In this document: piece after piece, positions 24,997 to 63,600 of the stretch
How positions within the stretch are numbered: position 1 is the first letter of the stretch
How the letters are laid out: every line of letters starts with the position of its first letter
From: an uncultured Candidatus Saccharibacteria bacterium
GTDB taxonomy: Bacteria > Patescibacteriota > Minisyncoccia > Phycocordibacterales > WO2-35-19
Reading direction: 5' to 3'
NCBI GenBank assembly: GCA_964489135.1
Contig: CAZAXK010000001.1
Coordinates: 20,615-84,614, forward strand
DNA: 64,000 nt
Notes under the pieces: generated by a model
Told to the model about the DNA's origin: nothing
Database searches by the model: none
What the model saw: only the letters and a program-made list of their open reading frames with translations
Position numbers and translations under genes: made by a program

Positions 24997-25036
24997 AATG
25001 AATGGTTTTTAAAAATTAAGCTCTTATAATACGAAC

Positions 25037-42783: not shown

Positions 42784-45276
42784 CTAAAATTCGATAAAAT
42801 TGGGGTTTAGAGCAAAGTTGGCTGTTACAGTTTTGGCCGAGCTCATAGTAACCGTGCAAGTTCCCGTGCCCGGACACGATCCACCGCCCTGCACCGTCCA
42901 ACCAGTGAATATTCTACCTGAAGCCGGTGTCGCCGTGAGGACAACGTTGGTATCTTGGTCAAAATCTTTCGAACATGTGCCACCACAATCAATTCCCGAT
43001 GGGGAGCTGGTTACCCTTCCCTGCCCTGACTTTAGCACCGTGAGCCCGTACTGATTGGGCACCTGCACACTAACTCTCACGCTATCAACCGAATTAATAC
43101 CGCTCGGCAGGCAGGTTAGGGTGTAAGTTTTATCGCCCGTCAGATTGCCAGATGAGCGACTGCCTGAAGTGCCGGTCCAGCCCGTATCGACAGAACATGA
43201 AGTAGCATTGGTTGAGGTCCAACTTATAGTAGAAGCTGTGTTGTATGGTACAGAGAGCGGACTAGCGGTGATATCAGCGACTGCCGATACGGGCGCGGTG
43301 ACTGTTATATTCCCCAATGAATTCGATTGGGCACAAATATTGGATGAGGAACCGGCAACGTTGGTACAAGATACCGGGAAGGTTCCACCGGTATTGCCCG
43401 CGGTACAATTAAAGTTTGCCGTTGTGCGGGTGGTATTACCGCTATCCCAACTCGAGAAAGCACAGGACGCTCCACCAGATGTCGTCACACCGACAGCATC
43501 GATACCTCTTACCCCATAATCACACTTTACCGTAAATGCCTCGCCAGCCGATAGACTAGTTTTGGAAATACTACTCTTAGAGCTATTGTAGTTTAGAACG
43601 GCGCAGACTGGTGTATCGCCACAAGCATAGGCAACTCCCCCGCTTGCATTACGCACTTGCCAAGTACGGCCGACTTTATCCACAAATCTATATGGCTGAC
43701 CCCAGAGTATGCCGTTGTCTGCACCTTGATCACTCCACCCAGACCAACCGCTACTACGATTTATATTATAAACCCAATTACCGTTAGCCCACGTCGTCTT
43801 TAGAGCAACATTAAGAGACCAGCCAAGAGATAAGTTGAGAGGAAGCGAGGTAACGGCACCAATACCCGTCCAACTCGAATCAAAGTTACAATTGCTATTG
43901 CCGTTAAATTTGCAACTCTGAACATAGGCATTGGTAGTAGCTCCTTGTCCTCCCACAGCGATCACGATCGCATCTTTATATTGGCTGTCTAGAGTACTGC
44001 CGACATATATGCCGACTGGCTGGTAATCAGTCGCCCCTCGATCGTGCAAATATCGCCAAGTGCCATCGCAAACGGCTACCGTTGTTGACTGTGGCATGGT
44101 ACACTTTGCCTCGAAAGCATTTCCATTGCGACGCACTTCCATAATCCTCCCGCTAGAATCAGTAGCACTCTGGGTTGCACCGATAGCACCGGAGTTTGTT
44201 GCCCAACCATATATAGCAGGATATCCGTAAGCGCCTGTATTCGGCATAGTAACCTGATAATCCCAAGTACAAGTGTCACTCATACCATTTAGATACCTAC
44301 AAAATGTTGAGAAATTGCCGAAAGCCGTAGTAAGCTGATTGTACTGGGTATAATATCGCCCATTGTAAGTTGCTTTGAAATACTTTTCGTTGTTGGTAGC
44401 GCCATTGTTCCAAAGTATCCAAGGACCAGAACTTATATCTGGAATAGTGCCCGGCGGTATCTCACGCCACGTCGCATCGCAAACTACTTTGCGCGAGGCC
44501 TTAACAGTGACGGAATAGGTAATGATCTTGGGACATTCGGGATTGTCGCTATCATATGCCTTAATGTCCACACTGTATGTTCCAGGAGTGGTCGTGCGCG
44601 GAGTGATAAACATCGTCCCTGGGGTAGCACCGTTCGAAGTATTCACATTGTAGGTAGAGTCGGAGGTACACGTTGCCCCAACCGGACAGTTTACTATCTT
44701 GGTTATTACAGCAACATCATTCTTCTTAGGTCCACTTGTAATAGAAAAGCTAAGCGGTATCGCCTCATCAATATAACCAGAAACGCTAGTACCTCCCGCG
44801 GCGGTAATATCGAAAACTCCGGTTGGACAAGTTTCTTGTGTGGTTCCGTCGCCACTACTCCCCCCCGAAGTATAGGTAGTTACTCGGCCACAAGGAGCAG
44901 AGCCCAGACTACAGCTCGTGTTGGAGTATGCGTAACTACACCAAGGATTCGAGCAGGCCGATCCAGAAATATATTTGCCAGAATAATTACAATATACTGA
45001 GCACTCACAATACTGTGTTGTGACCGTCTCTCCTGTAGCGGCATCAGTGCTAGATCTAGTCTGACAGTTGACCCATTGCCCAGTGGGACAAACCGGTGCG
45101 GGGGCGGTTGAGGTGTACACACAAGTGCCTACGTCCTCGCAAGTATATCCGGTACATTGCACAGCAGATACTTCGGTAAAGTTCGAAAGGAATCCTCCAA
45201 CAACAAACATTCCTAGGATAATCACAGGCACGAAGATTCGATAATGCACAAAAAAGGATTTGAGTTTTTCTTTCAT
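42784..45276 (-). CDS. large secreted Cys/Thr/Ser/Gly-rich surface protein with C-terminal divergent InlB B-repeat-like domains
   Basis: N-terminal TM/signal (FVHYRIFVPVIILGMFVVGGFL), then about 60 Cys in 830 aa. The C-terminal ~150 aa contain two copies of the G..RV.SSP.GIDCG..C...F......VTLTA.P..G..F.GW...C.G...C.V.M...K.VTA.F pattern. Confidence 0.7.
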   Translation of the reverse strand: MKEKLKSFFVHYRIFVPVIILGMFVVGGFLSNFTEVSAVQCTGYTCEDVGTCVYTSTAPAPVCPTGQWVNCQTRSSTDAATGETVTTQYCECSVYCNYSGKYISGSACSNPWCSYAYSNTSCSLGSAPCGRVTTYTSGGSSGDGTTQETCPTGVFDITAAGGTSVSGYIDEAIPLSFSITSGPKKNDVAVITKIVNCPVGATCTSDSTYNVNTSNGATPGTMFITPRTTTPGTYSVDIKAYDSDNPECPKIITYSVTVKASRKVVCDATWREIPPGTIPDISSGPWILWNNGATNNEKYFKATYNGRYYTQYNQLTTAFGNFSTFCRYLNGMSDTCTWDYQVTMPNTGAYGYPAIYGWATNSGAIGATQSATDSSGRIMEVRRNGNAFEAKCTMPQSTTVAVCDGTWRYLHDRGATDYQPVGIYVGSTLDSQYKDAIVIAVGGQGATTNAYVQSCKFNGNSNCNFDSSWTGIGAVTSLPLNLSLGWSLNVALKTTWANGNWVYNINRSSGWSGWSDQGADNGILWGQPYRFVDKVGRTWQVRNASGGVAYACGDTPVCAVLNYNSSKSSISKTSLSAGEAFTVKCDYGVRGIDAVGVTTSGGASCAFSSWDSGNTTRTTANFNCTAGNTGGTFPVSCTNVAGSSSNICAQSNSLGNITVTAPVSAVADITASPLSVPYNTASTISWTSTNATSCSVDTGWTGTSGSRSSGNLTGDKTYTLTCLPSGINSVDSVRVSVQVPNQYGLTVLKSGQGRVTSSPSGIDCGGTCSKDFDQDTNVVLTATPASGRIFTGWTVQGGGSCPGTGTCTVTMSSAKTVTANFALNPNFIEF

Positions 45277-45280
45277 AATG

Positions 45281-45796
45281 TTACTTGGTTACTGACACCT
45301 CGACGTAAACATCCTTGGTTGATGCGTTCTCTGTAATAACAACCTTGAGCAATCCTTCGAAGCCCTCTTTCTTCGCCATATACATTTTTATTTTCGGCGT
45401 ATTAAGAGAACTAAGCTCGTCTTGCTTTAGGTTGAAGGTTACCTTCCATTTTTTATCAGCAAAATACTTTTCGAAAATTTTGGCATTTTCCTCAACAGTT
45501 TTTTTCGAAAGATACTTATGTATACTCTGCGTCTCCGATTGTGGTTGCCAAGCAGAATTATAGAAATTATTTTGGTTTTCACTATTTTCGAGCACAATAC
45601 CTTTTTCTAGAGGTAAGTCATCGGGTAAGCCAATTGGGAGTTCGGTTTGCTCAACGACTTTGGTTGTACTCTTGACTGTCGGGTCTAGGGGTACCCCCTC
45701 TATCCCCTTCTGCCACGAGCCGGTCCGGTAGAGCACAAGCAAAACAACAATGACGATGATCGAGAGTAACAACAAAACTTTTTGCCCTGTAGTCAT
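45281..45796 (-). CDS. hypothetical membrane-anchored protein
   Basis: N-terminal TM (VLLLLSIIVIVVLLVL), then a soluble domain. Five bp downstream of the 830-aa surface protein gene, so probably co-transcribed. Confidence 0.5.
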   Translation of the reverse strand: MTTGQKVLLLLSIIVIVVLLVLYRTGSWQKGIEGVPLDPTVKSTTKVVEQTELPIGLPDDLPLEKGIVLENSENQNNFYNSAWQPQSETQSIHKYLSKKTVEENAKIFEKYFADKKWKVTFNLKQDELSSLNTPKIKMYMAKKEGFEGLLKVVITENASTKDVYVEVSVTK

Positions 45797-45894
45797 TTGT
45801 ATAAATTATACCTGCAAAATGCCACCCCGTCGGAGACGCCTGTGGAAAAGAAAGTGGTCCGTCTTGTCCCCCACTTATCCCCAAAATACCTTGC

Positions 45895-45973
45895 TTGACA
45901 AAAGCAAAAAAAGCTATATAATTAAGCCAGTTTCATCGTTATTTGAAATAATTCGTCTCTTTTAAGAAGGAGG
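45895..45973 (+). promoter_or_regulatory. consensus sigma-70 promoter (TTGACA-N16-TATAAT) plus strong Shine-Dalgarno (AAGGAGG) upstream of the subtilase gene
   Basis: TTGACA 45895-45900, TATAAT 45917-45922, AAGGAGG 45967-45973, 7 nt before ATG 45981. Confidence 0.55.
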
Positions 45974-45980
45974 AGCTGTT

Positions 45981-47975
45981 ATGCTCTGGTTAGTTGTAGT
46001 GTTTTTTGCAACCTTCCCGGGGCTCGCCTTTGGCCAGCTCCAAACAAGTAACAAGATCCAGCTGACTGACTTGCAGTGCCTTGCGACACTCACGGAAACA
46101 CAATACCGTGGGACGCAAGGATTGTGGGCCAATGTGCCCCGTGAGCAGGTCAGCACGAAGCCCGAGCTTTTCGGGGCAATCCTGCCCGGCTCGGCGAAGT
46201 TTGAGTGGATCGAGCCCAACCTCCCTTACAAGGGAACGGTGGCTCGCGCCAAAATCGAAGATATCGGTGCCGACAGATGGGTCGTCTACGTCCCCCAAAA
46301 GGGACTTGGATGCGACTTACTACAGAAAAGTGGTGGAAAAAAGGTGGTTGAGTCAGCGCGCGTAAGCGCGGTCGTGTACTCGACGCAAACCCAAACACCA
46401 GCCGTGTCTGCGGCAACGCAGCAGAGGTTGGTGCAGGTGGGACTCGCTCCCATCCTACCACTTACGGCAACATCCTCATCGACGACCCTTCGGGGTATCG
46501 TCGTTGTGGATTCCGGTGTCCAGGTAGGTAATCCGCAGCTTCATCAGCGTGTGGATCCCACCAACTCCGCTTCGTTCGTCGGAGGCACCGCCTTCGACGA
46601 CAGGGCCGGACACGGGACGGAGGTCGCTGAGATCATCGCCGGTCGCACGGCAGGGTTCGTGTCATCTACACCGATAATTTCTTATCGAGTGCTCGACACA
46701 GTTCCGCGTGCCGACGGCGAAGGTAAAATTCTGGTGGGGTCGGAAGCACTTGTGCTCCGGGCCCTGCTCCGTTTGCACTTGCTCCCGTATGAGCGACTGG
46801 TCGTGAATATGTCGTTGCAATTCTGGGGCGACCCAGAAATGTGGCGACTTGCGATCGGATCGCTCAAAGATCGAGCCACCTTCGTGGTCTCGGCTGGGAA
46901 CGCCTCTAGTGGGGTTGAGCCAAATTCAAATTGGCTCCCCTGCTCGCTCTCGAACCTCGAGAATTTGATCTGCGTTGGAGGCACCGATGGTGCTGACCGC
47001 AAGATCGAGTTCTCAAACTTCGGGCCGGCCGTCGAGATCGGCGCTCCGGCTGTCGTCGAGACATCTCTCGGCACGGTGGCCGGCACATCTTTCTCCGCCC
47101 CGCAAGTCGCGGGAACAGTCGGGCTCATCCTTGAGCAGACTAGCGAGAATTTCTCGCCGGCAATGCTCAAGAGCTTCGCGCTTGGCGGACGCTTCTCGGG
47201 ATACCTGCAAGGTGTCTTCGAGGAGCCAGTGGTGCTGAACGCCACTTCCGCCCTCGCAATCGCTCGCCGGTGCGCATCCGGCAAATGTTCCTCCTCTTCC
47301 CTCTCCCCTTTCTCAATAACTGGGGTTGAGGGCACTTGGTCCGGATCTTCCAAGTTCACGTACAGTGACTTGGTGACGATCCGCGGCACGTCACTCGTGG
47401 ACCGCGTCTACGAGCAAGGAGAAGTTGGGACCATGCCCCTTCGGGTCATGGTCAACGGTTACCATGAGGAAGTAACCGTGCTGAGGGCCACGCCCGAAGC
47501 GATCGAGATCGTCCTCCCGTCGATGTTCCGAGGTTCGGTCTGGGCGCAAGCTCAGGGTCCGGCCCTCGGAGGCGAGAGCATCCTTGCTCTCGTCCGACTC
47601 GTCGACGGGGTCCCCGTGCCAAGCACGGCGACAATCGCCACCCGCTTCCGCCCGGAGCTTGGATCCCCCGCCGTGGGGCTCATCGCTCGCGCGGACGGCA
47701 CCACGGCCGGACCGGACAATCCGATCCGCGCCAACGAAACCATCCAAATCTTCCTATCGGGCCTCGAGGCGTTCACCGCCTCCCAGGTACCGGTGGAAGT
47801 AGAGTTCGGAGGAGTCTCTCAAAAGCTCCTCCCGGCGGCCACCCCCATACAAGGGGTGTACGTGGTATTCGTTGAGACCCCTAAGGTCTCCGGAGCCTAC
47901 GGGCTCACGGGACGGGTCTCCGCCAGTAGTTCTTCTTTCGACTTCGGCGTCAACTATGACGCCGGGGTTGAATAA
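45981..47975 (+). CDS. secreted subtilisin-like serine protease (peptidase S8) with C-terminal extension; GC-rich, likely horizontally acquired
   Basis: Signal peptide MLWLVVVFFATFPGLAFG. Catalytic triad contexts VVDSGV (Asp), HGTEVAEIIAG (His), GTSFSAPQVAG (Ser). Sampled 60-nt windows give about 55-68% GC, against about 42-45% in flanking genes. Confidence 0.85.
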   Translation: MLWLVVVFFATFPGLAFGQLQTSNKIQLTDLQCLATLTETQYRGTQGLWANVPREQVSTKPELFGAILPGSAKFEWIEPNLPYKGTVARAKIEDIGADRWVVYVPQKGLGCDLLQKSGGKKVVESARVSAVVYSTQTQTPAVSAATQQRLVQVGLAPILPLTATSSSTTLRGIVVVDSGVQVGNPQLHQRVDPTNSASFVGGTAFDDRAGHGTEVAEIIAGRTAGFVSSTPIISYRVLDTVPRADGEGKILVGSEALVLRALLRLHLLPYERLVVNMSLQFWGDPEMWRLAIGSLKDRATFVVSAGNASSGVEPNSNWLPCSLSNLENLICVGGTDGADRKIEFSNFGPAVEIGAPAVVETSLGTVAGTSFSAPQVAGTVGLILEQTSENFSPAMLKSFALGGRFSGYLQGVFEEPVVLNATSALAIARRCASGKCSSSSLSPFSITGVEGTWSGSSKFTYSDLVTIRGTSLVDRVYEQGEVGTMPLRVMVNGYHEEVTVLRATPEAIEIVLPSMFRGSVWAQAQGPALGGESILALVRLVDGVPVPSTATIATRFRPELGSPAVGLIARADGTTAGPDNPIRANETIQIFLSGLEAFTASQVPVEVEFGGVSQKLLPAATPIQGVYVVFVETPKVSGAYGLTGRVSASSSSFDFGVNYDAGVE

Positions 47976-47981
47976 CCAAAA

Positions 47982-48018
47982 GGTCCAGACCGCTTCGGCG
48001 TCTGGACCTTTCACCTTT
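47982..48018 (+). terminator. rho-independent terminator of the subtilase gene
   Basis: GGTCCAGAC-CGCTTCGGC-GTCTGGACC is a perfect 9-bp stem with a UUCG-containing loop, followed by TTTCACCTTT. Confidence 0.7.
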
Positions 48019-48081
48019 CCCCTTCGTAATAGAAGAGGGTCACCCTCTTCCATTGGAAAAATGTGGTGTAATTTTTATGCT

Positions 48082-48774
48082 CTAAAGCTCGGCCTCAATA
48101 ACCTTTTCGAATTCAGCAAAGGGTAGGGCTCCCACCACGCGTTTACCATTTATAAATATTGTCGGGGTGCCGTTCACCTGTGCCTTCTCACCATCAGCGA
48201 TATCACTCTTCACAATGTTTGCTGTCTCTCCCGAATCAAGACATTGATTGAATTTTTGCGCATCGAGTCCGAGATTAACAGCGTATTTTTTCAGGTCAGT
48301 GGTACTGAGCCCCGAGCCGTCAGATCGCGTGCTGGCAAAAAGCGTATCATGATATTCGGAGAATTTGCCCTGCTTATAAGCACACTCCGAGGCCTCAGCG
48401 GCCTTCTCGGCAAACTGATGAATCGGCAATGGGAAATGTCGAAAAACTAATTTGGCTTTGCCGGTATCTACATACTTCTCCTTGATTTGTTTGTAAGCTC
48501 CAGCCCAAAAGCTCTGACAGAATGGGCATTGAAAATCCGAGAAGACTACTATCTCGACTTTGCCGGAGCCCAATGTAGGCGCGTCTTTTCTTTTGGCTAC
48601 ATCTACTTGCTCTGGAGGAGTATCGTTACTTTGCTGTCCCGCATTTTGTGTTCCTCGATTGGAAGATCCGCTTCCATTCAAACTCAAAAAAATACTCGCC
48701 GCTATTATGACCGAACCAACTAAAATACTTGCCGGTACTGACCATTCATTTTCGTTTTTGTTGAAGATACCCAT
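48082..48774 (-). CDS. DsbA-family thiol:disulfide oxidoreductase, membrane-anchored
   Basis: N-terminal TM, thioredoxin-fold CPFC active site (VVFSDFQCPFCQ), and the cis-Pro region of DsbA/BdbD-like proteins. Confidence 0.8.
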   Translation of the reverse strand: MGIFNKNENEWSVPASILVGSVIIAASIFLSLNGSGSSNRGTQNAGQQSNDTPPEQVDVAKRKDAPTLGSGKVEIVVFSDFQCPFCQSFWAGAYKQIKEKYVDTGKAKLVFRHFPLPIHQFAEKAAEASECAYKQGKFSEYHDTLFASTRSDGSGLSTTDLKKYAVNLGLDAQKFNQCLDSGETANIVKSDIADGEKAQVNGTPTIFINGKRVVGALPFAEFEKVIEAEL

Positions 48775-48794: not shown

Positions 48795-50222
48795 TTAATT
48801 ACCGCTCGCATACTCTACTGTATCACCAGCTTCTAGACCGGCTACAATTTCGCTCAGGCCGTCGCTACCCATTATTCCGGTCTTGACCTCGACTTTGGTA
48901 GTCGCCGTCCCGTCGAATTTATTGACGAAGGTTTTGTCGCCTTCCTTTATAAGTGCATAGCTCGGCAGAGTAACCACGCCATCTTTGCGCGCCGTTTCAA
49001 TATTGAGGTTACCAGTCATTCCGCTTTTTAATCGAGAGTCTGGTTTGACCGAAACGCGGGTCTTGTAATTGACCACCCCGTCAACCAAAGTTTCGCCTGG
49101 TTCTATATATACTACTTCGCCCTCGAATACATCCGACGGGAAGGAGTCGAACTCGATCCTGACTTTATTGCCTACCTGTACCTTGCCAATATTAACTTCC
49201 GAAATATTGGCCTCAATGCTAATCTGCCCTTCTGAAATGATAGATACGAGTCTGCTACCCGCGGGCGCGATAGAACCAACCTTGGCATCCTGGAGAGTGA
49301 TGGTACCAGCAAACGGAGCGATTATTTTTGATTTGTTAATCGAGGCCTCGATACCAGCGATTGAAGCATTGATCTGATCGATCCTTGCTTGACCAACACT
49401 GCCGACACTGCCGATCTGACTCACTGATTCTTTGGTGTTTATGATCGAAGTACGCGAGGTACTAACCGCTGAACGGGCGCTATCGATAGCCGTTTTATAA
49501 CCAGCGACAGTAGATTCGTAGGCAAAGTCAGCAGAGGTAAATGAGTTTACTGCATAAGCCATAGTGTCCAAAAAGTCCGAGATCTTGTTCATGCGGGCTA
49601 CCGCTCGATCTGCATAGACTTCGGCGTTTTGATCAGTCAAAGTGAGTAGTTCATTTTGCCAGAGCACGAGCTCGGCTTCGACATCACGTCTCTTACCATT
49701 GATCTCAATCGAGAGATCACTCGGAACATTGAAATAATGGACATAGTTCCCATCAGTAAACTTTACTTCAAATACAGGGTTGGTGCGCGGTTGCTTAAAG
49801 AATTGGTCGGCTTTGTTGCGCACAGCATTGTCGGCCGAGGCAAAACCCTCTCGTATACTTGAGGCCAAAGACTCGCGACTACCACCAAGAGTCGCTCGCT
49901 CTTCTGCAAGAGAGGCCTTTTCTTTTGCAAGACTAGCAAGCTCGCTTGAAATATCTAGCTCAGCAATAACTTCTCCTTGTCTCACGGTATCCCCAACCTG
50001 CTTGTAGCTTCTGACTACCCGACCAGTACGATCGAAACCAAGGTCAACGTTGTTGTCGGCTTTCACCTTGCCGGTTACGACAATTTCTTGCACCACACTT
50101 CCTGTGGTGGCTGTCAAATATTCCTTGCCATTTTGACCATTGCGCATTTTAATACCGATGACCACCGCAACCAAAATCACAACCCCTAAAATTATTTTTT
50201 TCTTGGTAAAAAATCTTTTCAT
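48795..50222 (-). CDS. HlyD/MacA-family periplasmic adaptor (membrane fusion protein)
   Basis: N-terminal TM anchor, lipoyl/beta-barrel segments (GKVKADNNVDLGFDRTGRVV..VGDTVRQGEVIAELD), long coiled coils, C-terminal barrel. Twelve bp upstream of the ABC ATPase gene. Confidence 0.8.
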   Translation of the reverse strand: MKRFFTKKKIILGVVILVAVVIGIKMRNGQNGKEYLTATTGSVVQEIVVTGKVKADNNVDLGFDRTGRVVRSYKQVGDTVRQGEVIAELDISSELASLAKEKASLAEERATLGGSRESLASSIREGFASADNAVRNKADQFFKQPRTNPVFEVKFTDGNYVHYFNVPSDLSIEINGKRRDVEAELVLWQNELLTLTDQNAEVYADRAVARMNKISDFLDTMAYAVNSFTSADFAYESTVAGYKTAIDSARSAVSTSRTSIINTKESVSQIGSVGSVGQARIDQINASIAGIEASINKSKIIAPFAGTITLQDAKVGSIAPAGSRLVSIISEGQISIEANISEVNIGKVQVGNKVRIEFDSFPSDVFEGEVVYIEPGETLVDGVVNYKTRVSVKPDSRLKSGMTGNLNIETARKDGVVTLPSYALIKEGDKTFVNKFDGTATTKVEVKTGIMGSDGLSEIVAGLEAGDTVEYASGN

Positions 50223-50234
50223 TTTTTTATTCTA

Positions 50235-50924
50235 TCACAACTTTACCTCGCTAGGGCTTCCGTCAGCCACAATATGGCCATCGGCCAATTTTACCACCCG
50301 ATGAGTCAACATGGCATACTCGGGCTCGTGGGTCACCATAACGATAGTTTGACCCTCTTTGTTCAGGTCGATAAATGTCTGCAAAACCGTGTTGGCTGTT
50401 TCAGTGTCCAGGTTCGCGGTCGGCTCATCGGCAAAGATGATTTTGGGATCATGGCTTATAGCTCGTGCGATCGAGACTCGTTGTTGCTCACCGCCTGAAA
50501 GTTGGTTCGGCAAGTTGTTCAACCTCTCTCCAAGACCAATCTTCGCAAGCGCCTTCTTGCCCTTGGCATAAGCATCCACCTGTTGTAGACCTTGCATTAA
50601 GAGAGGCACCGCCACATTTTCGAGCGCAGTGAGCTCGGGCACCAAAGCATAATCTTGGAAAACATAGCCAAGCTCGCGCAGTCGAAAATCTGTGCGTTCT
50701 TCCTCACTCAACAAAGAAACGTTGGTCCCATCCAGAATTATGTCGCCAGAATTTGGTCGATCCAAAATTCCTATCTGATGAAGCAGGGTCGACTTGCCCG
50801 AACCAGACCGCCCAATTATCGCAATAAACTGTCCCTGCTTAACTTCCAGATTCAGATTTTTGAGCACCACCAATTCAGTGCTTCCAGTCTTGTATGCTTT
50901 TGTGAGGTTGGATACTAAAATCAT
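50235..50924 (-). CDS. ABC transporter ATP-binding protein (MacB/LolD-type)
   Basis: Walker [10 protein letters not shown], signature [15 protein letters not shown], Walker B IIFADEPT. Confidence 0.9.
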
Positions 50925-50928
50925 ATTT

Positions 50929-52209
50929 TTATCTGCCTAATATAGAGTCCAAAGTATTGCGTTTGACAACCAATCGCGCGGGGATAAATCCGGCAATAAC
51001 AGTGGCTATTATAAGAAATAGCGCTCGCAAAAGAGTATTCGGTACTTCAGCCACCAAGATACCGTCAGAAAATGGGAAGTTGATCGGGTTGGCTGTGATA
51101 TATGGTACCAAAAGCCCGTACAAAATGAGTAGCCCAAGCAAAATACCGAGCCCAGCGTAAAATATCGATTGGAAAATATAGGAGATCTCGATTGCCCGCG
51201 AGCTGATGCCGATGCCCTTGAGAATACCGATGAACTTTCTTCGGGTGATTGCATTGATGAAAATCACGATAAAGATAGTGATCGAGGCCACAACGAGCCC
51301 GATCGAACCGACGACGTTACCAAGGATCGCAAAGGTGTCGATCATGTCTTTGATAAATTTTGGTAAGGATTCCTCAAAGGTCTGCACTCGAGCAGTCTGC
51401 CCCACCCCGCTGTTCAGCAATGCTTGCTTTACCACTGCTGGATCGCTTCCAGGCTTTAGAATTATCGCAATTTCATCGACATTGTAATCGCCTCGCCCGA
51501 TAAGAGGGCGCAGACTTTGGTCAAGCATGAGTATGCGCTGGTCGATATCGGTTTTGCTTTTGATAACCCCTTTGAGTATGACTTCTTTCGTATTGCCATT
51601 TACCGTGATTCGCACCCTATCCCCAATCTTTACATTTTCGAGCAAGTTGAGTCCTGGCGAATCGATATCTAAATATTTTTTAAGCATATTAGCCCCCACA
51701 ATGATGGAATCAGTGTCTTGATTGGTAAGATAGCTACCTTCAACAATTTTTGAAGAAATGCCAGTCGCTCGATCTTCCATTTCCGGATCGATACCGGCCA
51801 CGATCCCACCCGCCACATTTGGATCATCGGTAAGTCGAACTCGGGTTTTGTAATTGGCCTCGACTGACCCAGATTCTACATAGCGAGCGGTGTAAGTTTC
51901 TACCCACGGCAGGCCCTTTATAACACTGATGATCGATTGACTGTTCTCGATATAACTTTTCTTCGGTAAATTGGAGATAAATATGTCTCCCGAATAATAT
52001 TTTGAATATACCTCGACCGAGCCCTGTATAAGGCCGACGAGTATCCCTCTCACCACCACCAAATTCAGGAAAGTCAGGGTCATTACGAAAATAATCAGAG
52101 CGGTGGTCGCCTTGTTCGATCTTCGAACCTGCCGAAGCGCCAAGAAAAATCCCAAGTAGAGGGATGTAAAAAAACTTGCGTTCTTCTTTTGAGTCTGCGT
52201 TTCAGCCAC
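50929..52209 (-). CDS. ABC transporter permease, FtsX/MacB-like
   Basis: One N-terminal TM, large extracytoplasmic domain, then three C-terminal TMs (FtsX-like topology). Four bp from the ATPase gene. Confidence 0.8.
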   Translation of the reverse strand: MAETQTQKKNASFFTSLYLGFFLALRQVRRSNKATTALIIFVMTLTFLNLVVVRGILVGLIQGSVEVYSKYYSGDIFISNLPKKSYIENSQSIISVIKGLPWVETYTARYVESGSVEANYKTRVRLTDDPNVAGGIVAGIDPEMEDRATGISSKIVEGSYLTNQDTDSIIVGANMLKKYLDIDSPGLNLLENVKIGDRVRITVNGNTKEVILKGVIKSKTDIDQRILMLDQSLRPLIGRGDYNVDEIAIILKPGSDPAVVKQALLNSGVGQTARVQTFEESLPKFIKDMIDTFAILGNVVGSIGLVVASITIFIVIFINAITRRKFIGILKGIGISSRAIEISYIFQSIFYAGLGILLGLLILYGLLVPYITANPINFPFSDGILVAEVPNTLLRALFLIIATVIAGFIPARLVVKRNTLDSILGR

Positions 52210-56979: not shown

Positions 56980-59900
56980 TTATTGCGACGACAAGCTTTT
57001 TATCCGCGCTCTAGTCCCCGGCCCAACATTGCCATACCCAGTCGTCTGCGGACTACCACTCGAGACGATACCTTCTGCTCTTTGGAAAGATTTGACCGCA
57101 GCTTCAGTGAGGCGACCAAAAAATCCAATTGCATTACCCGGAGCTAAGTATCCTTTTGATATGAGGAAGTTTTGGAGCACGGTGACATCAGCGCCTTGTG
57201 AGCCGTATGAGAGATTGCGAGAGAGGTTTACGCCTCCGGTCGCAGAAGTGACCCCACCTGATGCAGTAGTGACAGATCCCGAGGAAGACGAGCTTTGGCC
57301 AGAACCAACAGAAAGTATTGCAATTCTTGCCCGAGTTTTTGCACCCGCAAGGCCGTATCCAGTCGTAGCGGCACTTCCGCTCGAGACTATGCCTTCCGCT
57401 CTTTGGAAAGATTTGACTGCCGCTTCAGTCAGTCGGCCGAAGAAGCCGATCGCGTTGCCTGGAGCGAGGTATCCCTTGGAGATGAGGAAGTTTTGCAAAT
57501 CAGTCACATCTTTACCCTCCATACCATATGCAAGGGTGCGTGATAGGACCACACCTATACCCACCGCATTACCAGGGACTGTGGCTGTGGAAGTAGGAGC
57601 TGTGATCGTTGCAGTAGTTCTCCCTGATGAAGATCCACCACCACCAGAAGATCCTCCGCCCGAGGAAGAAGTCGTGGTAACGACGGTAGTGCCACCACCG
57701 CCGCCGCCACCTCCACCTGAACCACTCGATGCTGTGCCTGAGTTGCCTTCGGCGTTAGTGGTAAATGACACAGTTACCGGGTCGGAGTAGTCGCCGTATT
57801 CATCTTTCAAAAAGATCGAGTAGTAATATTTGGTCAATGGCTTAACCGCCTCATCATGATAGCCAAGCTCCGAGCAGGCAAGGCTTGCGACCAAGCTTGT
57901 CTCTTCGGGTACAGTGATGAACCCAGTTTCGGATCTATAAACTTTAATGTTGGCGCACAATTCGTAATCAATTTTATCCCACTTGAGAATAACTGATCCT
58001 TCAGAAGCGGTGACATTCAGAATTTTTGGTGGTTTAGATGGTCTTTGCAAAGTAGAGAACGGCACAACGACAGAGACCGCTTCTCCCCCACCACTCGCTC
58101 TTGCCCTTACGCGTAAGTTGTAACTTTTACCAGGTTGCAATCCGCGCAAATCAATAACATGGTCCTTCGCATAGACAAAAGAAAATGTGGTCGAAGAAGT
58201 AAAGCTCTGGTCAGTACTCCATTCGGCCTTGACGACGGCCTGAGAATCTAGATGCACGGCGACACTAGCAGACTTATATTCTGGATCAATTGTTGGGTTA
58301 GACAAAAAGACAGGAGTCAGCGCAGAAACCGGAGGCGTAACAGCATTCACTGCGACAGAAGCACTCGCCGAAGCCGACCCACCGTTACCAGAACAGGAAA
58401 TGTTGTAGGTAGTGTTAGCGGTTGGAGCAACAGAAGCCGAACCCGACGTACTTGTCTGGTTTGTCCACGAGGCCGAACAACTTGAAGCATTGGTTGAGGA
58501 CCAGCTCAACGTAACACTGTTGCCTTGATCTACAGAAGTCGGGTTAGCGCTAAGGGTTACTGTTGGAGCGGTGTTTGTCGGAGGATTGGTTGGATTTGGA
58601 ACGGTAGTAGTCGCAATAGTACCGGTACGCGGGAGGAAAGCCCACTTTGGACTCCCGTTAAATCGATCTTGATAATCGATATGGCTCTTAAACCAGTCCC
58701 AAGCTGTTTGTCCAGAAATTCCATTCCAAGAAAAATTGGTTAGGAAACTTGAAGCGCCATAACTTAGTATTGAGTACCCGCCTTCATAGTCGTGATCATT
58801 CACAAAGTCGGTGGTACGCGTCTGATACTGCGAGAGCATGGCGTTCTTTACCTCGGCCCAAGTCTGGAAGTAATTGCCGTTCTTATCAGTTGAAGGCGTG
58901 CGGTAATTTTGGAGGAAATAAGGACTGTAAGTCGGATCGAATACTTGGCCAAGCAGATTCTGAGCAAAACGTTCTCGAAGTGGTCGAATTTGGGTAAAGC
59001 CCAACTCATCCAAGTGTCCAAGCACTACATGCAAGAACGCATTTTGGAATGGGATGCTTACGTTATTGGCTTTTGTAAGATCGGCTTCGCCGTCAGCCCC
59101 GTATCCCTTAGACCAGAAGTTGAGAGCATTAGGAAATTTACCGAATTTATTTTTGCCGATACACCAGATCGATGTTTCGGTGTAGGCGTTAAACGGATTT
59201 GTAGTACATGGACTATAATAGCTTCCGTTTTGGATATCAAATGAACCTTCACGCACAGCGATATTGTTGATCATCTTGTCGGTATAGTATTTCTTTTCGG
59301 GAGTGCTGTCCGGCGCCAAAAACGCCGCTTCGCCCAAGCCACGAAAACTCCACGCTACTCCACGATCCTCGTTGCCGATCAAACCTTTGCCAAAGATACG
59401 ATTATTTGGATTTGTGGTATGAAGTATATAAGAGGCTTCGTTGTACATACCTTCGAGGAAGTACCAGTCGCCCGTAAATAGGTATGGCAAGTAGAAGCTA
59501 TTTGGGAAATGATTTACGTCTACGATCCAGCCCACATTGGAAGTCTTATCGACAGCAAACTGATAATCGCCATCTTGGTCTGAACTCTTACTTATATTTG
59601 AGTAAGTTTTTGGGCGAGCATCAAGAGACATTGACCTGCCGAACATGTCATCGGACATTCCAGTGACGAAAAGCTTGCCTGTTTTCGACTCACGGGCAAA
59701 CATAGGAATCATGTTTGAAGCATTACCGTTGCCCACTAGCTCTTGGAACAATTCTGGTACTCTCGAATCGGAAGTCTTCATTGCATACAAGTAGACCATC
59801 TGCCATGTGGTAAAGAGACCGATGTCAGGACGCTGACCTGCATCAAATTGGTTTTTCCAGATCTGACCTTGTACCGCGCTCGAATCATTTGTACCCGGTT

Positions 59901-62103
59901 CACCTTTATCACTATTACGCCATCCCGGGGTAGTACCCACAGAATGATAGTAGCCGGTATCCAACATACTGGTAATAGCACTATTCGTAATATTTAGGTC
60001 AGGATTGAAGTTGGGGATGGCTTTGGTGTACGCCAAATATGGAAGATTGTAGTCAATGTATACTGCCGGAGGTTGAGCACCGATAGAAAATGTCTTGCGC
60101 CAACGAGTCTTTGCAATGTGTTTGATATTGGCCTTTGAGTAAACCGGAGTAAGGCCTCTTCCAATCTTCAAGACCAGATCATAAAATTGGTCTTGAAGCT
60201 TTTGCGTCCACATGTTTTCGAGAATCATATCTACCTTGGTTGACTCGGGAGATTTTGGGGTGAATGTTGCGACGAAAATAGGGTGCATTGATTTAAAGGT
60301 AGAAGTGTCGGCTGGTCTCCAACCTGTCTGATCTTCGACGGTAGCGAATTCTCCCCATGCCGCTATCCCAACTTCCGTTGTGCCTCCATATTTTCGTCCA
60401 TCATAGTTCGGACAGCTACTTACGCCGAATTGAATCGTATTTCCAGTCTTGCCACAAACACGCATCCGCTCATTAAAGAGTTTGATAACTGAAGGCACAG
60501 GAATATCGCTTGCATCGAGCACATTCATGCTGGTGTCTCCAGCTCTAAAGTAACCGTTGGGTGTGGCCAAGAAACTTGCGGTATTTTTGTAACCAAAATC
60601 GTATTTGAGCGCTGTGGATCGGTCTTCTAGAATGATCTGAGTGACAATAGGACCTTTGAGCCAATATCTGAAATCGCCATTTTGGAGCATCTCACGAGCG
60701 CTGGCTTTCTGTGTATTGCCGTCTTTGCTCGTCTCTATCACCGCCTCGAAATCATACCCCGAGGCAAGCATCTGATCTTTTGTAAGAGCAAGACCAACAC
60801 CGCAATTACAGGAGGATTGATTTATGAAATCGACTGCAGTCGAGCCATTATTTGGCACATCAGCAACAAAAGAAATCATTGCATGCTTAACGCTACCATC
60901 TTCATACCGGCTCATAACATCTGCTTGGGTTTCCGTGGGCGAACCACCTATGCGGGCTTTGGGATAATTGAGTATCTCACCTTTGGCAAATATTCGCGAT
61001 ACAGTGAATGTTTTGTTGTTTGCATCGACGGTGCTGAAATTTTTCAGAACAACTCCGTTGCCTGATGCGGGATAATTTTCTGTAATGCTGGAGTAAGAAA
61101 CTGAAGGGGTGTTAATGACCGGCAACGGCTGGCTGACTGTTGTCGTCGTCGCGCTCACCACCACTGGAGAAGTTGAGGTTGCTGTTGGCGTTGTTTGAGT
61201 ACTTGTTGTTGTGGTTGCTTGTGTGTTTGTGTTTGAGCTAGTCGTATTGGACGTATTAGTCGTAGTATTGGTCGTATTGGTAGTGGTTGTGGTATTCGAA
61301 GAAGTATCAGGAGGGGTCGAGGTTTCGCCACGATAGTTGTACAACTCCGTTATTTCATCGATTGTCAGCACTCTACTGTAGATTCGCATATCATCCATCA
61401 CACCAATAAAGGGCGCTTTTTGCCCGTCGCTCCTGTCACCGATTAGAAGTTTTGGATTTGTAGTCAGACTTGCTGTTGGGGCCGTAGCAGTAGACTCAAG
61501 CACTGCGTCTGAGTAAACTTTTATTTCTCCACTTGTTTTATTGCGAGTAGCACATACATAGTGCCACGATGCATCAACCAAATTTTTCTTTCCATATACC
61601 GAAGTATCTGATCCGGTACCAGATCCAATACCCAGAACCAAAACACCTGAACCGTTTACACCAAAGGTATAGTCATTGCCACTACCCGGCCACGATGACG
61701 CAGCGATCGCACGCGACTCGTAGTGTGTGGGGCCTATCCCTTTGCGCTCAGGTTTGATCCAAGCACAAATCGAAAAGTCATCTTGCACCGGCCGATCAAC
61801 CTTGACTGAACTTGAGGCATTCAATGAGTATGCGGACCCTATAATGCCGGACACCAGATCCACACCAGAAACAGTTGGCTCGTAATTTGAGCTTAGAATA
61901 AACCCACCGCTAGAAGGGGTCGAAAGATTATCAAAGGGATAATGTGCCACAAGATCCTGAGTGGCAAAAGCCCCAAGCACGGCCGCTCGGTTTTCTGTTG
62001 TAGGCACACTATCCTGATCACCAAAATACATCTGTAAACCTTTTATTCCGAGAGCCAAGAGAACCAAGAGCGCCAAGTAGAGGGCCAGTTTTTTAAAAGT
62101 CAT
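56980..62103 (-). CDS. giant (1707 aa) cell-surface protein: signal/TM, LamG-like jelly-roll domain, Thr-rich linker, large central domain of unknown function, FN3-like repeats, Gly-rich linker, two C-terminal peptidoglycan-binding (PGBD-like) domains
   Basis: N-terminal TM (LALYLALLVLLALGI). LamG/ConA-like features (ICAWIKPERKG...WHYVCATR..G.IKVYSD...LLIGDRSDG..FIGVMDDMRIYSRVLT). Two Ig/FN3-like segments. Two copies of DVTDLQNFLISKGYLAPGNAIGFFGRLTEAAVKSFQRAEGIVSSGS (PG_binding_1 pattern). Confidence 0.8.
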   Translation of the reverse strand: MTFKKLALYLALLVLLALGIKGLQMYFGDQDSVPTTENRAAVLGAFATQDLVAHYPFDNLSTPSSGGFILSSNYEPTVSGVDLVSGIIGSAYSLNASSSVKVDRPVQDDFSICAWIKPERKGIGPTHYESRAIAASSWPGSGNDYTFGVNGSGVLVLGIGSGTGSDTSVYGKKNLVDASWHYVCATRNKTSGEIKVYSDAVLESTATAPTASLTTNPKLLIGDRSDGQKAPFIGVMDDMRIYSRVLTIDEITELYNYRGETSTPPDTSSNTTTTTNTTNTTTNTSNTTSSNTNTQATTTTSTQTTPTATSTSPVVVSATTTTVSQPLPVINTPSVSYSSITENYPASGNGVVLKNFSTVDANNKTFTVSRIFAKGEILNYPKARIGGSPTETQADVMSRYEDGSVKHAMISFVADVPNNGSTAVDFINQSSCNCGVGLALTKDQMLASGYDFEAVIETSKDGNTQKASAREMLQNGDFRYWLKGPIVTQIILEDRSTALKYDFGYKNTASFLATPNGYFRAGDTSMNVLDASDIPVPSVIKLFNERMRVCGKTGNTIQFGVSSCPNYDGRKYGGTTEVGIAAWGEFATVEDQTGWRPADTSTFKSMHPIFVATFTPKSPESTKVDMILENMWTQKLQDQFYDLVLKIGRGLTPVYSKANIKHIAKTRWRKTFSIGAQPPAVYIDYNLPYLAYTKAIPNFNPDLNITNSAITSMLDTGYYHSVGTTPGWRNSDKGEPGTNDSSAVQGQIWKNQFDAGQRPDIGLFTTWQMVYLYAMKTSDSRVPELFQELVGNGNASNMIPMFARESKTGKLFVTGMSDDMFGRSMSLDARPKTYSNISKSSDQDGDYQFAVDKTSNVGWIVDVNHFPNSFYLPYLFTGDWYFLEGMYNEASYILHTTNPNNRIFGKGLIGNEDRGVAWSFRGLGEAAFLAPDSTPEKKYYTDKMINNIAVREGSFDIQNGSYYSPCTTNPFNAYTETSIWCIGKNKFGKFPNALNFWSKGYGADGEADLTKANNVSIPFQNAFLHVVLGHLDELGFTQIRPLRERFAQNLLGQVFDPTYSPYFLQNYRTPSTDKNGNYFQTWAEVKNAMLSQYQTRTTDFVNDHDYEGGYSILSYGASSFLTNFSWNGISGQTAWDWFKSHIDYQDRFNGSPKWAFLPRTGTIATTTVPNPTNPPTNTAPTVTLSANPTSVDQGNSVTLSWSSTNASSCSASWTNQTSTSGSASVAPTANTTYNISCSGNGGSASASASVAVNAVTPPVSALTPVFLSNPTIDPEYKSASVAVHLDSQAVVKAEWSTDQSFTSSTTFSFVYAKDHVIDLRGLQPGKSYNLRVRARASGGGEAVSVVVPFSTLQRPSKPPKILNVTASEGSVILKWDKIDYELCANIKVYRSETGFITVPEETSLVASLACSELGYHDEAVKPLTKYYYSIFLKDEYGDYSDPVTVSFTTNAEGNSGTASSGSGGGGGGGGGTTVVTTTSSSGGGSSGGGGSSSGRTTATITAPTSTATVPGNAVGIGVVLSRTLAYGMEGKDVTDLQNFLISKGYLAPGNAIGFFGRLTEAAVKSFQRAEGIVSSGSAATTGYGLAGAKTRARIAILSVGSGQSSSSSGSVTTASGGVTSATGGVNLSRNLSYGSQGADVTVLQNFLISKGYLAPGNAIGFFGRLTEAAVKSFQRAEGIVSSGSPQTTGYGNVGPGTRARIKSLSSQ
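57035..57510. repeat. diverged direct repeat (~165 nt units, ~305-nt period) encoding the two PGBD-like domains
   Basis: Units at about 57035-57200 and 57340-57510 encode an identical 46-aa peptide but differ at many synonymous positions. Confidence 0.65.
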
Positions 62104-62222: not shown

Positions 62223-62966
62223 TCAGTTTGGTAAGGATCTCAACCATAGGTCTGTCTCCTCAAACAGTTCTCTTTCATCCTCCCAATTATCAAAACAGTG
62301 ATCAGCGTGCTTTATACTAACCAGCTTTTTTGGTTTGTTGGCCAGATCAAAATACTTCTTGCCTGCCTCCGAATTCCCCTTCCTTCCGGAAGTGATAAAT
62401 AAGACCGGTTTATTAATTTTCATTATCAACTCCCCACAATCAGGAAAATTTTTGAGTTCATCGATAAATCCTCTCCCTACCATATACTCAAACCCAAAAT
62501 CATATACATACGCATTAACTTTTTTATTAAATCCCAAATCAGCAGTATCTGATTTTTTCAAATTTATGTAAGAGGCATCCCAAAATACAAATCCTTGAAC
62601 CAATGACTGATCTGCGAAAAGCAGAGATGTACCGCCATAACTATGACCAACAATAAATATCCTTTTGTATTTTTTCCGGAAGTGCTTTGCGACTGTTGTA
62701 ATATCCTTCCCATGCAAACTTATTTTTACATCTCTGAAATGTCTGCTCCCCTTCTGGCCCCCTCCGTACAGATTGAAACGAAATGTGTCAAATCCTCTTT
62801 CTGTTAAATACCTAGACCCATTAAAGAAAATGTGCTCGTTTTGATGACCAGTAAATCCGTGCACAAATATAACTAGCCGAGTTGACTTAGGTTTTGCAAT
62901 ACCTAACGTCCCGTATAAGTATTTACCGTCATGTGTCTTTATTTTCAATTCTTTTTCCATATTCAC
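62223..62966 (-). CDS. alpha/beta hydrolase fold protein
   Basis: Nucleophile elbow GHSYGG, and upstream HGFTG oxyanion region; 247 aa. Confidence 0.7.
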   Translation of the reverse strand: MNMEKELKIKTHDGKYLYGTLGIAKPKSTRLVIFVHGFTGHQNEHIFFNGSRYLTERGFDTFRFNLYGGGQKGSRHFRDVKISLHGKDITTVAKHFRKKYKRIFIVGHSYGGTSLLFADQSLVQGFVFWDASYINLKKSDTADLGFNKKVNAYVYDFGFEYMVGRGFIDELKNFPDCGELIMKINKPVLFITSGRKGNSEAGKKYFDLANKPKKLVSIKHADHCFDNWEDERELFEETDLWLRSLPN

Positions 62967-63013
62967 TTGGGTTATGTACGGATCAGCATACCAAGCTATA
63001 GCCGAAATTGCAC

Positions 63014-63041
63014 TTGCCTAAAACATCTCGTTTGCTATAAT
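63014..63041 (+). promoter_or_regulatory. sigma-70-like promoter (TTGCCT-N16-TATAAT) on the + strand, antisense to the 3' end of the MazF-like gene
   Basis: TTGCCT 63014-63019, TATAAT 63036-63041. Followed by a CCCTCTCGAAAGAGGG hairpin and a weak CGGAGAAATCCG-TTTTTTATTTT terminator-like element at 63105-63127. No plausible + strand CDS. Confidence 0.35.
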
Positions 63042-63092
63042 ATGCTCATATTTGGGGTTACCCACGTTCCCTCTCGAAAGAGGGGGAGAATA

Positions 63093-63482
63093 TCAAGAAT
63101 AAAGGCGGAGAAATCCGTTTTTTATTTTAGCTATATCGGCCTCGTCCAAAGATCCCATTTTTTCGTACATTCTCAAATGACTGAGAACTCTTATTTGGGC
63201 TAGGTTAGCAACCGCTTCTTTCCCTTGAAAAGATATCTCCACATACCACGTTCCTTTCTTGTCACTGGTCGATAGTGGTATCCCAAGAAATCCATTTGCG
63301 CTTAATTTTTTGTAAATATAAACCGGTCGCGAAAAAGGCCTCCCCTTGCCATTTACTTCAACGCCGACATTTTCGCCAATAGCACACCACCAAATCTCCC
63401 CTTCCTTAAATAAGGGTGGCTTATTATCTGCATTGTGTAGTTTCTCTTTCAAACCAAACCACTCGAGAAATCTCTTAATCAT
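63093..63482 (-). CDS. MazF/PemK-like endoribonuclease toxin-fold protein (no adjacent antitoxin gene)
   Basis: GEIWWCAIGENVGVEVNGKGRPFSRPVYIY...GFLGIPLSTS...VANLAQIRVLS follows the MazF/PemK pattern G(D/E)I..vdf...G.E..g.RP.vV...P.T...dQi. Start at ATG 63482 (MIKRF). The longer ORF-track start would overlap the tRNA. Confidence 0.55.
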   Translation of the reverse strand: MIKRFLEWFGLKEKLHNADNKPPLFKEGEIWWCAIGENVGVEVNGKGRPFSRPVYIYKKLSANGFLGIPLSTSDKKGTWYVEISFQGKEAVANLAQIRVLSHLRMYEKMGSLDEADIAKIKNGFLRLYS

Positions 63483-63529
63483 TAATAAAATTGTAGCATC
63501 AATAAATGCCAGTTGGAAACAAATTAATG

Positions 63530-63600
63530 TGCGACTAGGGAGAATCGAACTCCCGTCTAATGCTTGGGAAGCACTCATTCTGCCACTAAACTATAGTCGC
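63530..63600 (-). tRNA. tRNA-Gly (anticodon CCC), 71 nt, CCA not encoded
   Basis: Minus-strand sequence GCGACTATAGTTTAGTGGCAGAATGAGTGCTTCCCAAGCATTAGACGGGAGTTCGATTCTCCCTAGTCGCA. 7-bp acceptor stem GCGACTA/TAGTCGC; T-arm GGGAG-TTCGATT-CTCCC; anticodon stem AGTGC/GCATT with loop TTCCCAA. Confidence 0.8.

Follow-up and report, generated by a model that had tools for sequence, protein, structure and literature searches.

Here we analyse a subtilase gene and its expression signals at positions 45895-48018 of a 64,000-nt stretch of DNA (the window) from an uncultured Candidatus Saccharibacteria bacterium (GenBank assembly GCA_964489135.1, contig CAZAXK010000001.1). The gene is bracketed by a promoter, a Shine-Dalgarno (SD) sequence and a terminator-like hairpin, and an initial annotation had read the whole as a self-contained expression unit imported from a foreign, higher-GC, SD-using donor. 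We find it probable that the gene is instead a resident of one conserved Saccharibacteria/Patescibacteria locus with a recombination-prone coding region, and not a recent foreign import. The features of the unit are as follows, in window coordinates.

45890..45922, + strand: sigma-70-type promoter CTTGCTTGACAAAAGCAAAAAAAGCTATATAAT (-35 TTGACA at 45895-45900, N16 spacer, -10 TATAAT at 45917-45922), a 12/12 consensus match
45931..45948, + strand: palindrome TTTCA-N8-TGAAA at the start of the 5′ untranslated region (5′UTR), a candidate operator or 5′ stem-loop
45967..45973, + strand: SD sequence AAGGAGG, 7 nt 5′ of the ATG; no other of the 48 open reading frames (ORFs) of the window has a full AGGAGG
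45981..47975, + strand: coding sequence (CDS) of the predicted pre-pro-subtilase, 664 amino acids (aa), the sole ORF of region 45895-48018, GC 0.598, GC at third codon positions (GC3) 0.683
45981..46034, + strand: predicted Sec signal peptide (MLWLVVVFFATFPGLAFG / QLQ), read from the translation, with a putative cleavage site
46077..46385, + strand: N-terminal propeptide-like domain, aa 33-135, with a predicted local distance difference test score (pLDDT) of 78-94 in an AlphaFold (AF2) model
46488..47276, + strand: S8 catalytic domain, aa 170-432, with PF00082 and residues D177, H211, N307 and S370
47313..47960, + strand: C-terminal all-beta region, aa 445-660, read from the AF2 secondary structure as two beta-sandwich domains
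47979..48011, + strand: putative terminator hairpin followed by CUUUCACCUUUCC, GC-rich, with a stem of 12 + 2 bp and -22.4 kcal/mol

The product belongs to Peptidase S8 by its profile match, by the order of the catalytic triad together with the oxyanion Asn, and by its subtilisin alpha/beta fold. PF00082 (Peptidase_S8) matches residues 174-398 at 76.9 bits (cut-off 21.8, E 2.1e-21), and D177 (VVDSG), H211 (HGT), the oxyanion N307 (AGN) and S370 (GTSFSAP) stand in subtilase order and are invariant across 8 family members. An AF2 model computed from the family alignment has a pLDDT of 80.8 and a predicted template modelling (TM) score of 0.78, with residues 1-27 of low confidence or disordered and a disordered linker (pLDDT <50) at aa 137-168. 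Foldseek comparison with the PDB gave E values down to 5e-15 and target-normalised TM scores of 0.7-0.78 to subtilisins. The top matches, unautoprocessed pro-subtilisin E (3whi), Plasmodium SUB1, Tk-SP ProN (3afg), PCSK9 and fervidolysin, include zymogens and propeptide-containing subtilases; a Pfam I9 match was looked for in the propeptide-like domain and none was found. From the model and the translation, the product is predicted to be a secreted pre-pro-subtilase with an intact Asp-His-Ser triad and to act as a protease. Narrower assignments were rejected: the mycosin model (TIGR03921) was the best NCBIfam match, over the Asp-box region, but scored 55.4 bits against a cut-off of 278.75, and the scores for QhpE and dentilisin lay far under their cut-offs.

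The atypical composition described by the initial annotation holds. The comparison set consists of mechanically called ORFs of at least 150 aa (48 including the subtilase, some with possibly wrong start codons), and the compositional background is the 64-kb window rather than the whole genome. Within this set the subtilase has the highest GC and is the greatest GC3 outlier: its overall GC of ~0.598 (0.62, 0.49 and 0.683 at the first, second and third codon positions) compares with a mean of 0.462 (standard deviation (sd) 0.034) for the remaining 47 ORFs, whose mean GC3 is 0.506 (sd 0.067) and whose pooled values are 0.466 for GC and 0.505 for GC3. The gene thus exceeds its neighbours by +0.132 in GC (dGC) and +0.178 in GC3 (dGC3). 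GC is not uniform along the window, with 0.58 and 0.62 in the two 1-kb intervals at 46001-48000 and 0.37-0.52 in all others. At 100-nt resolution it lies at 0.53-0.74 within the subtilase and 0.32-0.48 just outside, with a step up at the start codon (0.32 to >0.53) and a step down at the stop (0.59 to 0.43).

About half of this GC excess is a matter of amino-acid composition, because the GC expected from the protein alone is already high. Gly, Ala, Val, Ser, Thr and Pro are abundant in the protein, and recoding it by the codon preferences of the remaining 47 ORFs predicts a GC of 0.534, the maximum of the window (typical genes are at ~0.47), against 0.599 observed. The remaining half is elevated GC3, which is observed at 0.683 where 0.508 is expected from the gene's own amino acids and the codon usage of the window, a difference of 2.3 sd of the gene-to-gene spread. 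Within the gene, sliding-window GC3 is highest in the C-terminal all-beta region (0.72-0.82). Native genes approach such values, namely an M29 peptidase gene at 8542-9756 (0.657) and DnaK, DnaJ and GrpE (0.59-0.60), and the codon deviations of the subtilase correlate with those of native high-GC3 genes (DnaK, DnaJ, GrpE and the M29 and M16 peptidases) at r = 0.73. Codons favoured by both include GCC, CGC, CTC, ATC, TTC, GAC, TAC, GTC and CCG, while extra G-ending codons in the subtilase (ACG, GGG, GAG, GTG) are not common to the native high-GC3 genes.

The TTGACA-N16-TATAAT promoter was likewise correctly called. A perfect match of this kind occurs a single time in the window, as the sole one in 40-54 kb, and never in shuffled sequences. 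Related loci (numbered L002 onwards) share the consensus CTTGCTTGACAAAA.CAAAAAAA.CT.TATAAT, which is near-identical in L002, L003, L007, L012 and L013 and recognisable in L006. With both hexamers, a spacing within 16-18 nt and conservation in orthologous loci, the element has the marks of a sigma-70 promoter and appears to be one. The TTTCA-N8-TGAAA palindrome is also present in L007, L012 and L013; L002 and L003 have TGACAT...ATGTCA instead. Every 5′UTR variant carries its own perfect inverted repeat, so that the shape is kept though the sequence differs.

The SD sequence, too, is as first described. A GGAGG core lies 5′ of the orthologues in L002, L003, L004, L006, L007, L012 and L013, and weaker purine-rich cores are seen in L009 (GGGAG), L010 (GGGGG) and L005 (only GGTGAG). 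Because an SD core of at least 4 nt precedes most orthologues, the SD appears to be a property of the gene and not a donor relic. Of the terminator, which had been called perfect, the strong GC-rich hairpin stands (z = -5.85; 0/200 shuffles folded equally well), but its U-tract is interrupted (UUUCACCUUUCC), for which reason a consensus terminator scan made no call there. The hairpin sequence is similar in L003 and L007, and analogous GC-rich hairpins with T-runs, several of them clean, follow the stop codon in most orthologues. Since promoter, SD and hairpin recur in orthologous loci, the self-contained character of the unit is a conserved property of the locus rather than donor baggage.

The claim that most genes here are leaderless also finds support. 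In 20 of the 48 ORFs the start codon is preceded by a TATAAT box (5 or more of 6 positions matching) whose end lies 4-13 nt, mostly 6 nt, away, compared with 3.9% of random positions, and an SD core of at least 5 nt precedes only 2 of the 48. The pattern runs throughout the window, for example at starts 1019, 10235, 19143, 25037, 29484, 34018 and 45796 (- strand). The consensus sigma-70 promoter of the subtilase, by contrast, would give a leadered mRNA (~50 nt of leader) with the palindrome and the strong SD in its leader and the hairpin at its end. Rfam searches of the subtilase 5′UTR and the neighbouring leader gave nothing at gathering thresholds or at E <= 1, and a literature search on leaderless and SD usage or on subtilases in Saccharibacteria returned nothing directly relevant.

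Relatives of the subtilase are few. A word-indexed search of 5.8 billion proteins returned the query itself and one 50% homologue, and when 1.84 billion cluster representatives were searched exhaustively with HMMER, no more than 6 proteins reached E <= 1e-30, with a few further full-length relatives near 30% identity. Weaker HMMER matches were generic S8 catalytic-domain proteins, among which those from outside the candidate phyla radiation (CPR) were ~30-36% identical over the catalytic core only. Scanning GTDB species representatives with a profile of 5 family sequences yielded three loci (L006-L008), all from uncultured Candidatus Saccharibacteria, one of them (L006) 74% identical. Among the more distant relatives, P0013 (a protein on L009, 29% identical by BLASTP) is annotated as Candidatus Zambryskibacteria (Parcubacteria) and P0014 as 'Patescibacteria group'. 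Every full-length relative of known source is thus from Patescibacteria, mostly Candidatus Saccharibacteria, and no close relative beyond Patescibacteria was seen in the protein and genome searches; the foreign donor lineage that had been postulated did not emerge from them, and the initial annotation had itself named nearest homologues of one lineage as a ground for its refutation. Scans for the subtilase family and the promoter were both empty in JGI metagenome contigs and both empty in IMG/VR viral contigs, the latter giving no evidence for a phage vector. Judged by these searches, the subtilase appears to form a small, rare subfamily seen only in Patescibacteria.

The neighbouring features of the window are the following.

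42784..45276, - strand: 830-aa Cys-rich surface protein with a C-terminal Flg_new_2 (InlB B-repeat) domain (PF18998, E 3.8e-10)
45281..45796, - strand: p171, divergent from the subtilase and apparently leaderless (TATAAT ending 8 nt before the ATG), a small gene whose product has a hydrophobic stretch at its N-terminus
48032..48050, no strand assigned: perfect palindrome GAAGAGGGTCACCCTCTTC in the intergenic stretch of the convergent pair; it probably serves the - strand DsbA-like gene as terminator
48082..48774, - strand: DsbA-like thiol-disulfide oxidoreductase, convergent with the subtilase (PF13462 E 1.8e-32, PF01323 E 2.9e-21)

Gene order around the subtilase is conserved in most relatives, running from the Flg_new_2 surface protein through p171 and the subtilase to DsbA where the contig extends that far. 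An orthologue of the Flg_new_2 gene is found at the same position in L003, L004, L006, L007, L009 and L011, and in L003 and L004 the subtilase has the DsbA-like gene on the same side as in the window. The p171 product, for which no Pfam or NCBIfam family match was obtained, has homologues accompanying the subtilase in L003, L004, L006, L007, L009, L010 and L012/L013, and a marginal one only in L005 (E 0.004). Relatives occupying this syntenic position are 29-84% identical in protein to the window subtilase. Close relatives would be expected to lack a recently imported gene, but the subtilase is present at the same site in L012 and L013 (where p171 is 80% identical) and in L003, L004, L006, L007 and L009. 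The more distant relatives L015 and L017 have a DsbA 62-65% identical to that of the window without an adjoining subtilase, L017 with a p171-like gene directly after DsbA; the closest DsbA match in a search for nearer siblings was 70%. The GGGTCACCCT part of the palindrome at 48032..48050 recurs downstream in L002.

In L004 and L009 one or two extra genes separate p171 from the subtilase. Among them is a secreted-looking protein of 637-675 aa (L004 4688-6601, L009 5833-7860), likewise of elevated GC (0.51-0.53) and with no Pfam match on record, whose C-terminus recalls what we take to be TIGR03437-type Ig-like domains, and the copy in L009 carries its own consensus promoter and SD. A relationship of these extra genes (p637/p675) to the subtilase as paralogues was rejected by BLASTP.

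Signs of mobility were looked for around the window subtilase. Pfam found no mobility genes in the vicinity, the neighbours in the window being housekeeping or envelope genes; a search for flanking direct or inverted repeats (of insertion sequence (IS), integron or att type) gave only short, chance-level matches; and the only tRNA lies 15 kb away, so that there is no tRNA boundary. Silent or partial copies of the subtilase were likewise not found in the 64-kb window. Further along, a MacAB-like ABC ATPase and FtsX permease (window 48795-52209, L003 12375-15805) are 89-90% identical between the two loci, compared with 63% for the housekeeping GltX (window versus the L003-like L007) and 69-72% to L003 for DsbA and HlyD. 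This transporter is either unusually conserved or has itself been exchanged.

The GC excess is found across the family. Flanking genes are available at 10 loci, and at all 10 the subtilase has a higher GC than its pooled neighbours, with a dGC of +0.064 to +0.253 and a dGC3 of +0.10 to +0.39, and its GC stays at 0.50-0.60 while that of the neighbours runs from 0.29 (L005) to 0.50 (L004). Its GC3 is above that of chaperone genes in both the window and L009, and in L009 also above that of ribosomal-protein genes. The closest sibling, L012, has a p171 80% identical and a subtilase 84% identical over 559 aa, with a GC3 of 0.642 against 0.676 for the matching stretch of the window gene. Only 58% of identical-amino-acid codons have the same third base in these two genes, leaving synonymous sites ~42% different, and the GC/AT differences are near-symmetric (84 versus 66). 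That high GC3 has been kept through such heavy synonymous turnover argues against a recent, now decaying import. Between the window and L006, which is AT-shifted, synonymous sites are near saturation at 74% aa identity; because only 47% of third bases are common to the two, this divergence is old and the event was not very recent. The orthologues at L005 351-2336 (GC 0.55) and L010 1020-3032 (GC 0.51) sit among neighbours of GC 0.29-0.32, with a dGC3 of +0.39 and +0.23. They are the family's most extreme compositional mismatch and the best candidates for a genuine transfer between Patescibacteria differing in GC.

Adjacent genes at the locus give conflicting histories. The window subtilase is 74% identical to that of L006 and 44% identical to those of L003 and L007, and p171 has the reverse pattern, at 37% and 56%, respectively. 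The two trees (that of p171 from a 163-column alignment) conflict with 100% bootstrap each way, and the conflict lies between Saccharibacteria lineages; the Flg gene is uninformative on the grouping. A junction can be seen on comparing L012 with L013 (GCA_054403235.1 and GCA_054403375.1, two assemblies), which have zero differences over ~1,600 nt comprising 990 nt of the Flg gene, the complete p171, the promoter and ~28 nt at the start of the 5′UTR. From ~30 nt before the ATG onwards they differ at 14-69 positions per 100 nt, which would place the recombination junction directly 3′ of the TTTCA-N8-TGAAA palindrome. At codons 105-165 the two return to 80-93% nucleotide identity, and because of this recurring patch the L012/L013 subtilase is considered internally mosaic. 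The propeptide-like region of L013 is also longer by an insertion of 13 codons. In the window, the promoter, proximal UTR and terminator are L003/L007-like and the SD and CDS are L006-like; since the promoter, the first part of the 5′UTR and the terminator are alike in relatives with the window's flanks, they appear to be resident DNA.

On these comparisons, lateral exchange does seem to occur, among Saccharibacteria and at the level of the coding region. The initial proposal of horizontal acquisition is therefore kept in part, as the gene has a history different from that of p171 and belongs to a rare family, but the exchange appears to be between Saccharibacteria and to involve the coding region. 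The coding region would be swapped between lineages by homologous recombination, which the junction shows in part, with a 5′ junction in the conserved 5′UTR ~30 nt before the ATG and a 3′ junction probably near the terminator, as the similarity of the terminators suggests. The GC3 excess may then derive from a process tied to recurrent recombination at the subtilase locus, either GC-biased gene conversion (gBGC) or the repeated receipt of alleles from higher-GC relatives, with a possible contribution from native codon bias, as in a highly expressed gene. We regard a recombination-linked process as the most economical account of the GC3 elevation. The product could serve in extracellular proteolysis at the epibiont-host interface or in maturation of the adjoining surface protein.

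Several points weigh against this interpretation. The sample amounts to ~7 independent lineages, with many short contigs, and the compositional background is that of 64 kb only. L012 and L013 come from metagenome assemblies, and their junction could be an assembly join of co-occurring strains, though such a join would still require two alleles behind one identical flank. The tree conflict depends on the short p171 alignment, with the Flg gene giving no guidance. gBGC enters here as a hypothesis only, and on a rough estimate it is conceivable that amelioration started from a GC3 of ~0.75 before the split between the window and L012. Finally, the codon correlation of r = 0.73 fits plain native codon bias as well as it fits a Saccharibacteria donor.

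Taken further, the same evidence could mean that epibiotic Patescibacteria use the coding region as a dedicated cassette for swapping alleles. Lineages would then exchange a hypervariable secreted protease, which is paired with p171 and the giant surface protein, via conserved 5′UTR and terminator junctions in an arms race with host bacteria; gBGC at this recombination hot spot would keep the GC of the gene 6-25 points higher than that of any host genome, and SD-led translation would be a separate expression regime in leaderless genomes. We put this forward as speculation that is doubtful in its full extent.

Among alternatives to a resident gene with a recombining coding region, the one that survives best is a purely vertical native gene, whose GC would reflect its amino acids and a strong codon bias at very high expression, with tree conflicts arising from rate variation or diversifying selection. 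The GC of 0.534 expected from amino acids alone and the codon deviations shared with the chaperone and peptidase genes are in its favour, as are the perfect promoter and SD, which suggest high expression, and the divergence between the window and L012, which is in step for the two genes (S8 84%, p171 80%). We nevertheless consider it unlikely. The GC3 of the subtilase is above that of the chaperone genes in the window and L009 and of the ribosomal-protein genes in L009, the extra use of ACG, GGG, GAG and GTG is not shared by native high-GC3 genes, and in L005 and L010 the excess over neighbours reaches 0.23-0.39 GC3. The change in L012/L013 from zero differences over ~1,600 nt to 14-69 per 100 nt is beyond rate variation, which also leaves the reciprocal 100% bootstrap conflict of adjacent genes unexplained.

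An ancient acquisition by a Patescibacteria ancestor from a high-GC donor, after which the gene descended vertically and ameliorated incompletely, would fit the family-wide GC excess, the confinement of the family to a small clade, and a GC range narrower in the subtilase (0.50-0.60) than in the hosts (0.29-0.50). At a family divergence reaching down to ~29-37% identity, with synonymous sites near saturation, full amelioration would be expected; the mosaic junctions are not accounted for either, and no candidate donor is visible, as the non-CPR matches are generic S8 proteins of ~30-36% identity over the catalytic core. This makes an ancient import improbable.

Recent acquisition of the whole unit (promoter, SD, gene and terminator) from an unrelated higher-GC, SD-using donor, such as an actinobacterial host, is in our view very improbable. 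The features that suggest it are real: the gene has the highest GC and GC3 and the only full SD of the window, the family is rare and missing beside DsbA in L015 and L017, and the best NCBIfam match is a mycosin model, albeit with 55 bits where 279 are required. Yet every relative of known source above ~30% full-length identity is from Patescibacteria, relatives at 29-84% protein identity hold the same locus, and relatives with the same flanks have a matching promoter, UTR and terminator, with an SD core before most orthologues. The nearest sibling, itself equally high in GC3, differs at ~42% of synonymous sites, and neither mobility genes nor flanking repeats were found around the window gene. 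With resident signals, a family-wide GC excess and no signs of mobility, the imported unit of the initial annotation is not upheld. An assembly artefact, in which the GC-rich segment would be a chimeric insertion in a contig of metagenomic origin with sharp GC boundaries, can hardly be credited, as the same 16,151 nt are found with no mismatches on a separately assembled Logan contig of run SRR12762304, the gene has the same position in at least 6 other assemblies, and the GC boundaries fall at the promoter and terminator and not at arbitrary points.

Other parts of the window have features of their own. A low-GC island at 9765-13358 (GC 0.39-0.41, GC3 0.37-0.40, binomial z -3 to -7.5) holds a NUDIX gene, an unknown ORF, an Exo_endo_phos nuclease and an alanyl-tRNA synthetase gene, and is as compositionally anomalous as the subtilase in the opposite direction. 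Two further stretches have a GC of 0.37-0.40: one at 24009-26000, where an unknown 194-aa ORF lies and a histidine kinase gene begins, and one at 62223-63578, with an alpha/beta hydrolase and a PemK/MazF-like toxin ORF whose 5′ end, as mechanically called, overlaps tRNA-Gly(CCC) at 63529-63600. A giant envelope protein of 1707 aa (56980-62103, - strand) carries Laminin_G_3 and two PG_binding_1 domains, with GC at second codon positions of 0.50 and GC3 of 0.45. A second near-consensus promoter (TTGACA-N17-TATTAT with an extended TG, 11/12) belongs to a unit at 42756-42049 on the - strand, where it is followed at once by a hairpin, a ~340-nt leader and then a 109-aa ORF with the motif GVMQINEYYHG, which may be transglycosylase-like. 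Rfam found nothing in this leader even at E <= 1, and it could be an undescribed regulatory element.

Compared with known systems, the predicted product resembles secreted bacterial and archaeal pre-pro-subtilases (3whi, Tk-SP 3afg, fervidolysin 1r6v) in its S8 fold, triad and oxyanion Asn, zymogen or propeptide-like N-terminal domain and extra C-terminal beta domains. It is only 13-27% identical to solved structures and has no Pfam I9 match in its propeptide-like domain, and unlike the known pre-pro-subtilases, the members of its subfamily have been seen in Patescibacteria alone, in every case together with a p171-like gene. Mycosin, a subtilase associated with type VII secretion systems (T7SS), gives the best NCBIfam match, yet there are no T7SS genes nearby. 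Compositionally atypical 'alien' genes are reportedly covered by the amelioration framework of Lawrence and Ochman. The subtilase is like such genes and genomic islands in having GC and GC3 well above the local background within sharp boundaries, and unlike islands it is without integrase, flanking repeats or a tRNA boundary, its homologues are confined to the same lineage and locus, and its GC anomaly recurs in every relative and is not decaying. Allele replacement via conserved flanks is familiar from surface- and secreted-protein loci, such as the capsule or pilin loci of pathogens. By analogy, the subtilase locus would be similar in having a hyper-divergent CDS between conserved flanks and a breakpoint in a conserved regulatory segment; unlike those loci it involves a single protease gene, with no silent donor copies in the window, in an obligate epibiont with a reduced genome. 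Recombination-associated GC enrichment, attributed to gBGC, has been described in bacterial genes (Lassalle et al. 2015, PMC4450053). The subtilase agrees with this, as the recombining gene is the GC3-richest of its neighbourhood in most lineages examined; its dGC3 of +0.10 to +0.39 may exceed the genome-wide effect given there.

For composition-based calls of horizontal gene transfer, the locus is a caution, as a gene 13 GC points above its surroundings, with its own promoter, SD and terminator, can be a long-term resident. The combination of a recombination junction with a GC3 elevation that persists over a host GC of 0.29-0.50 makes it a compact natural test case for bacterial gBGC, and a single strongly SD-led gene set in a largely leaderless genome could be useful for work on how translation starts in CPR bacteria. 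To our knowledge, very few effectors are known for the Saccharibacteria-host interaction. A rare subtilase of Patescibacteria, encoded beside p171 and usually beside a giant surface protein, is a plausible player in it.

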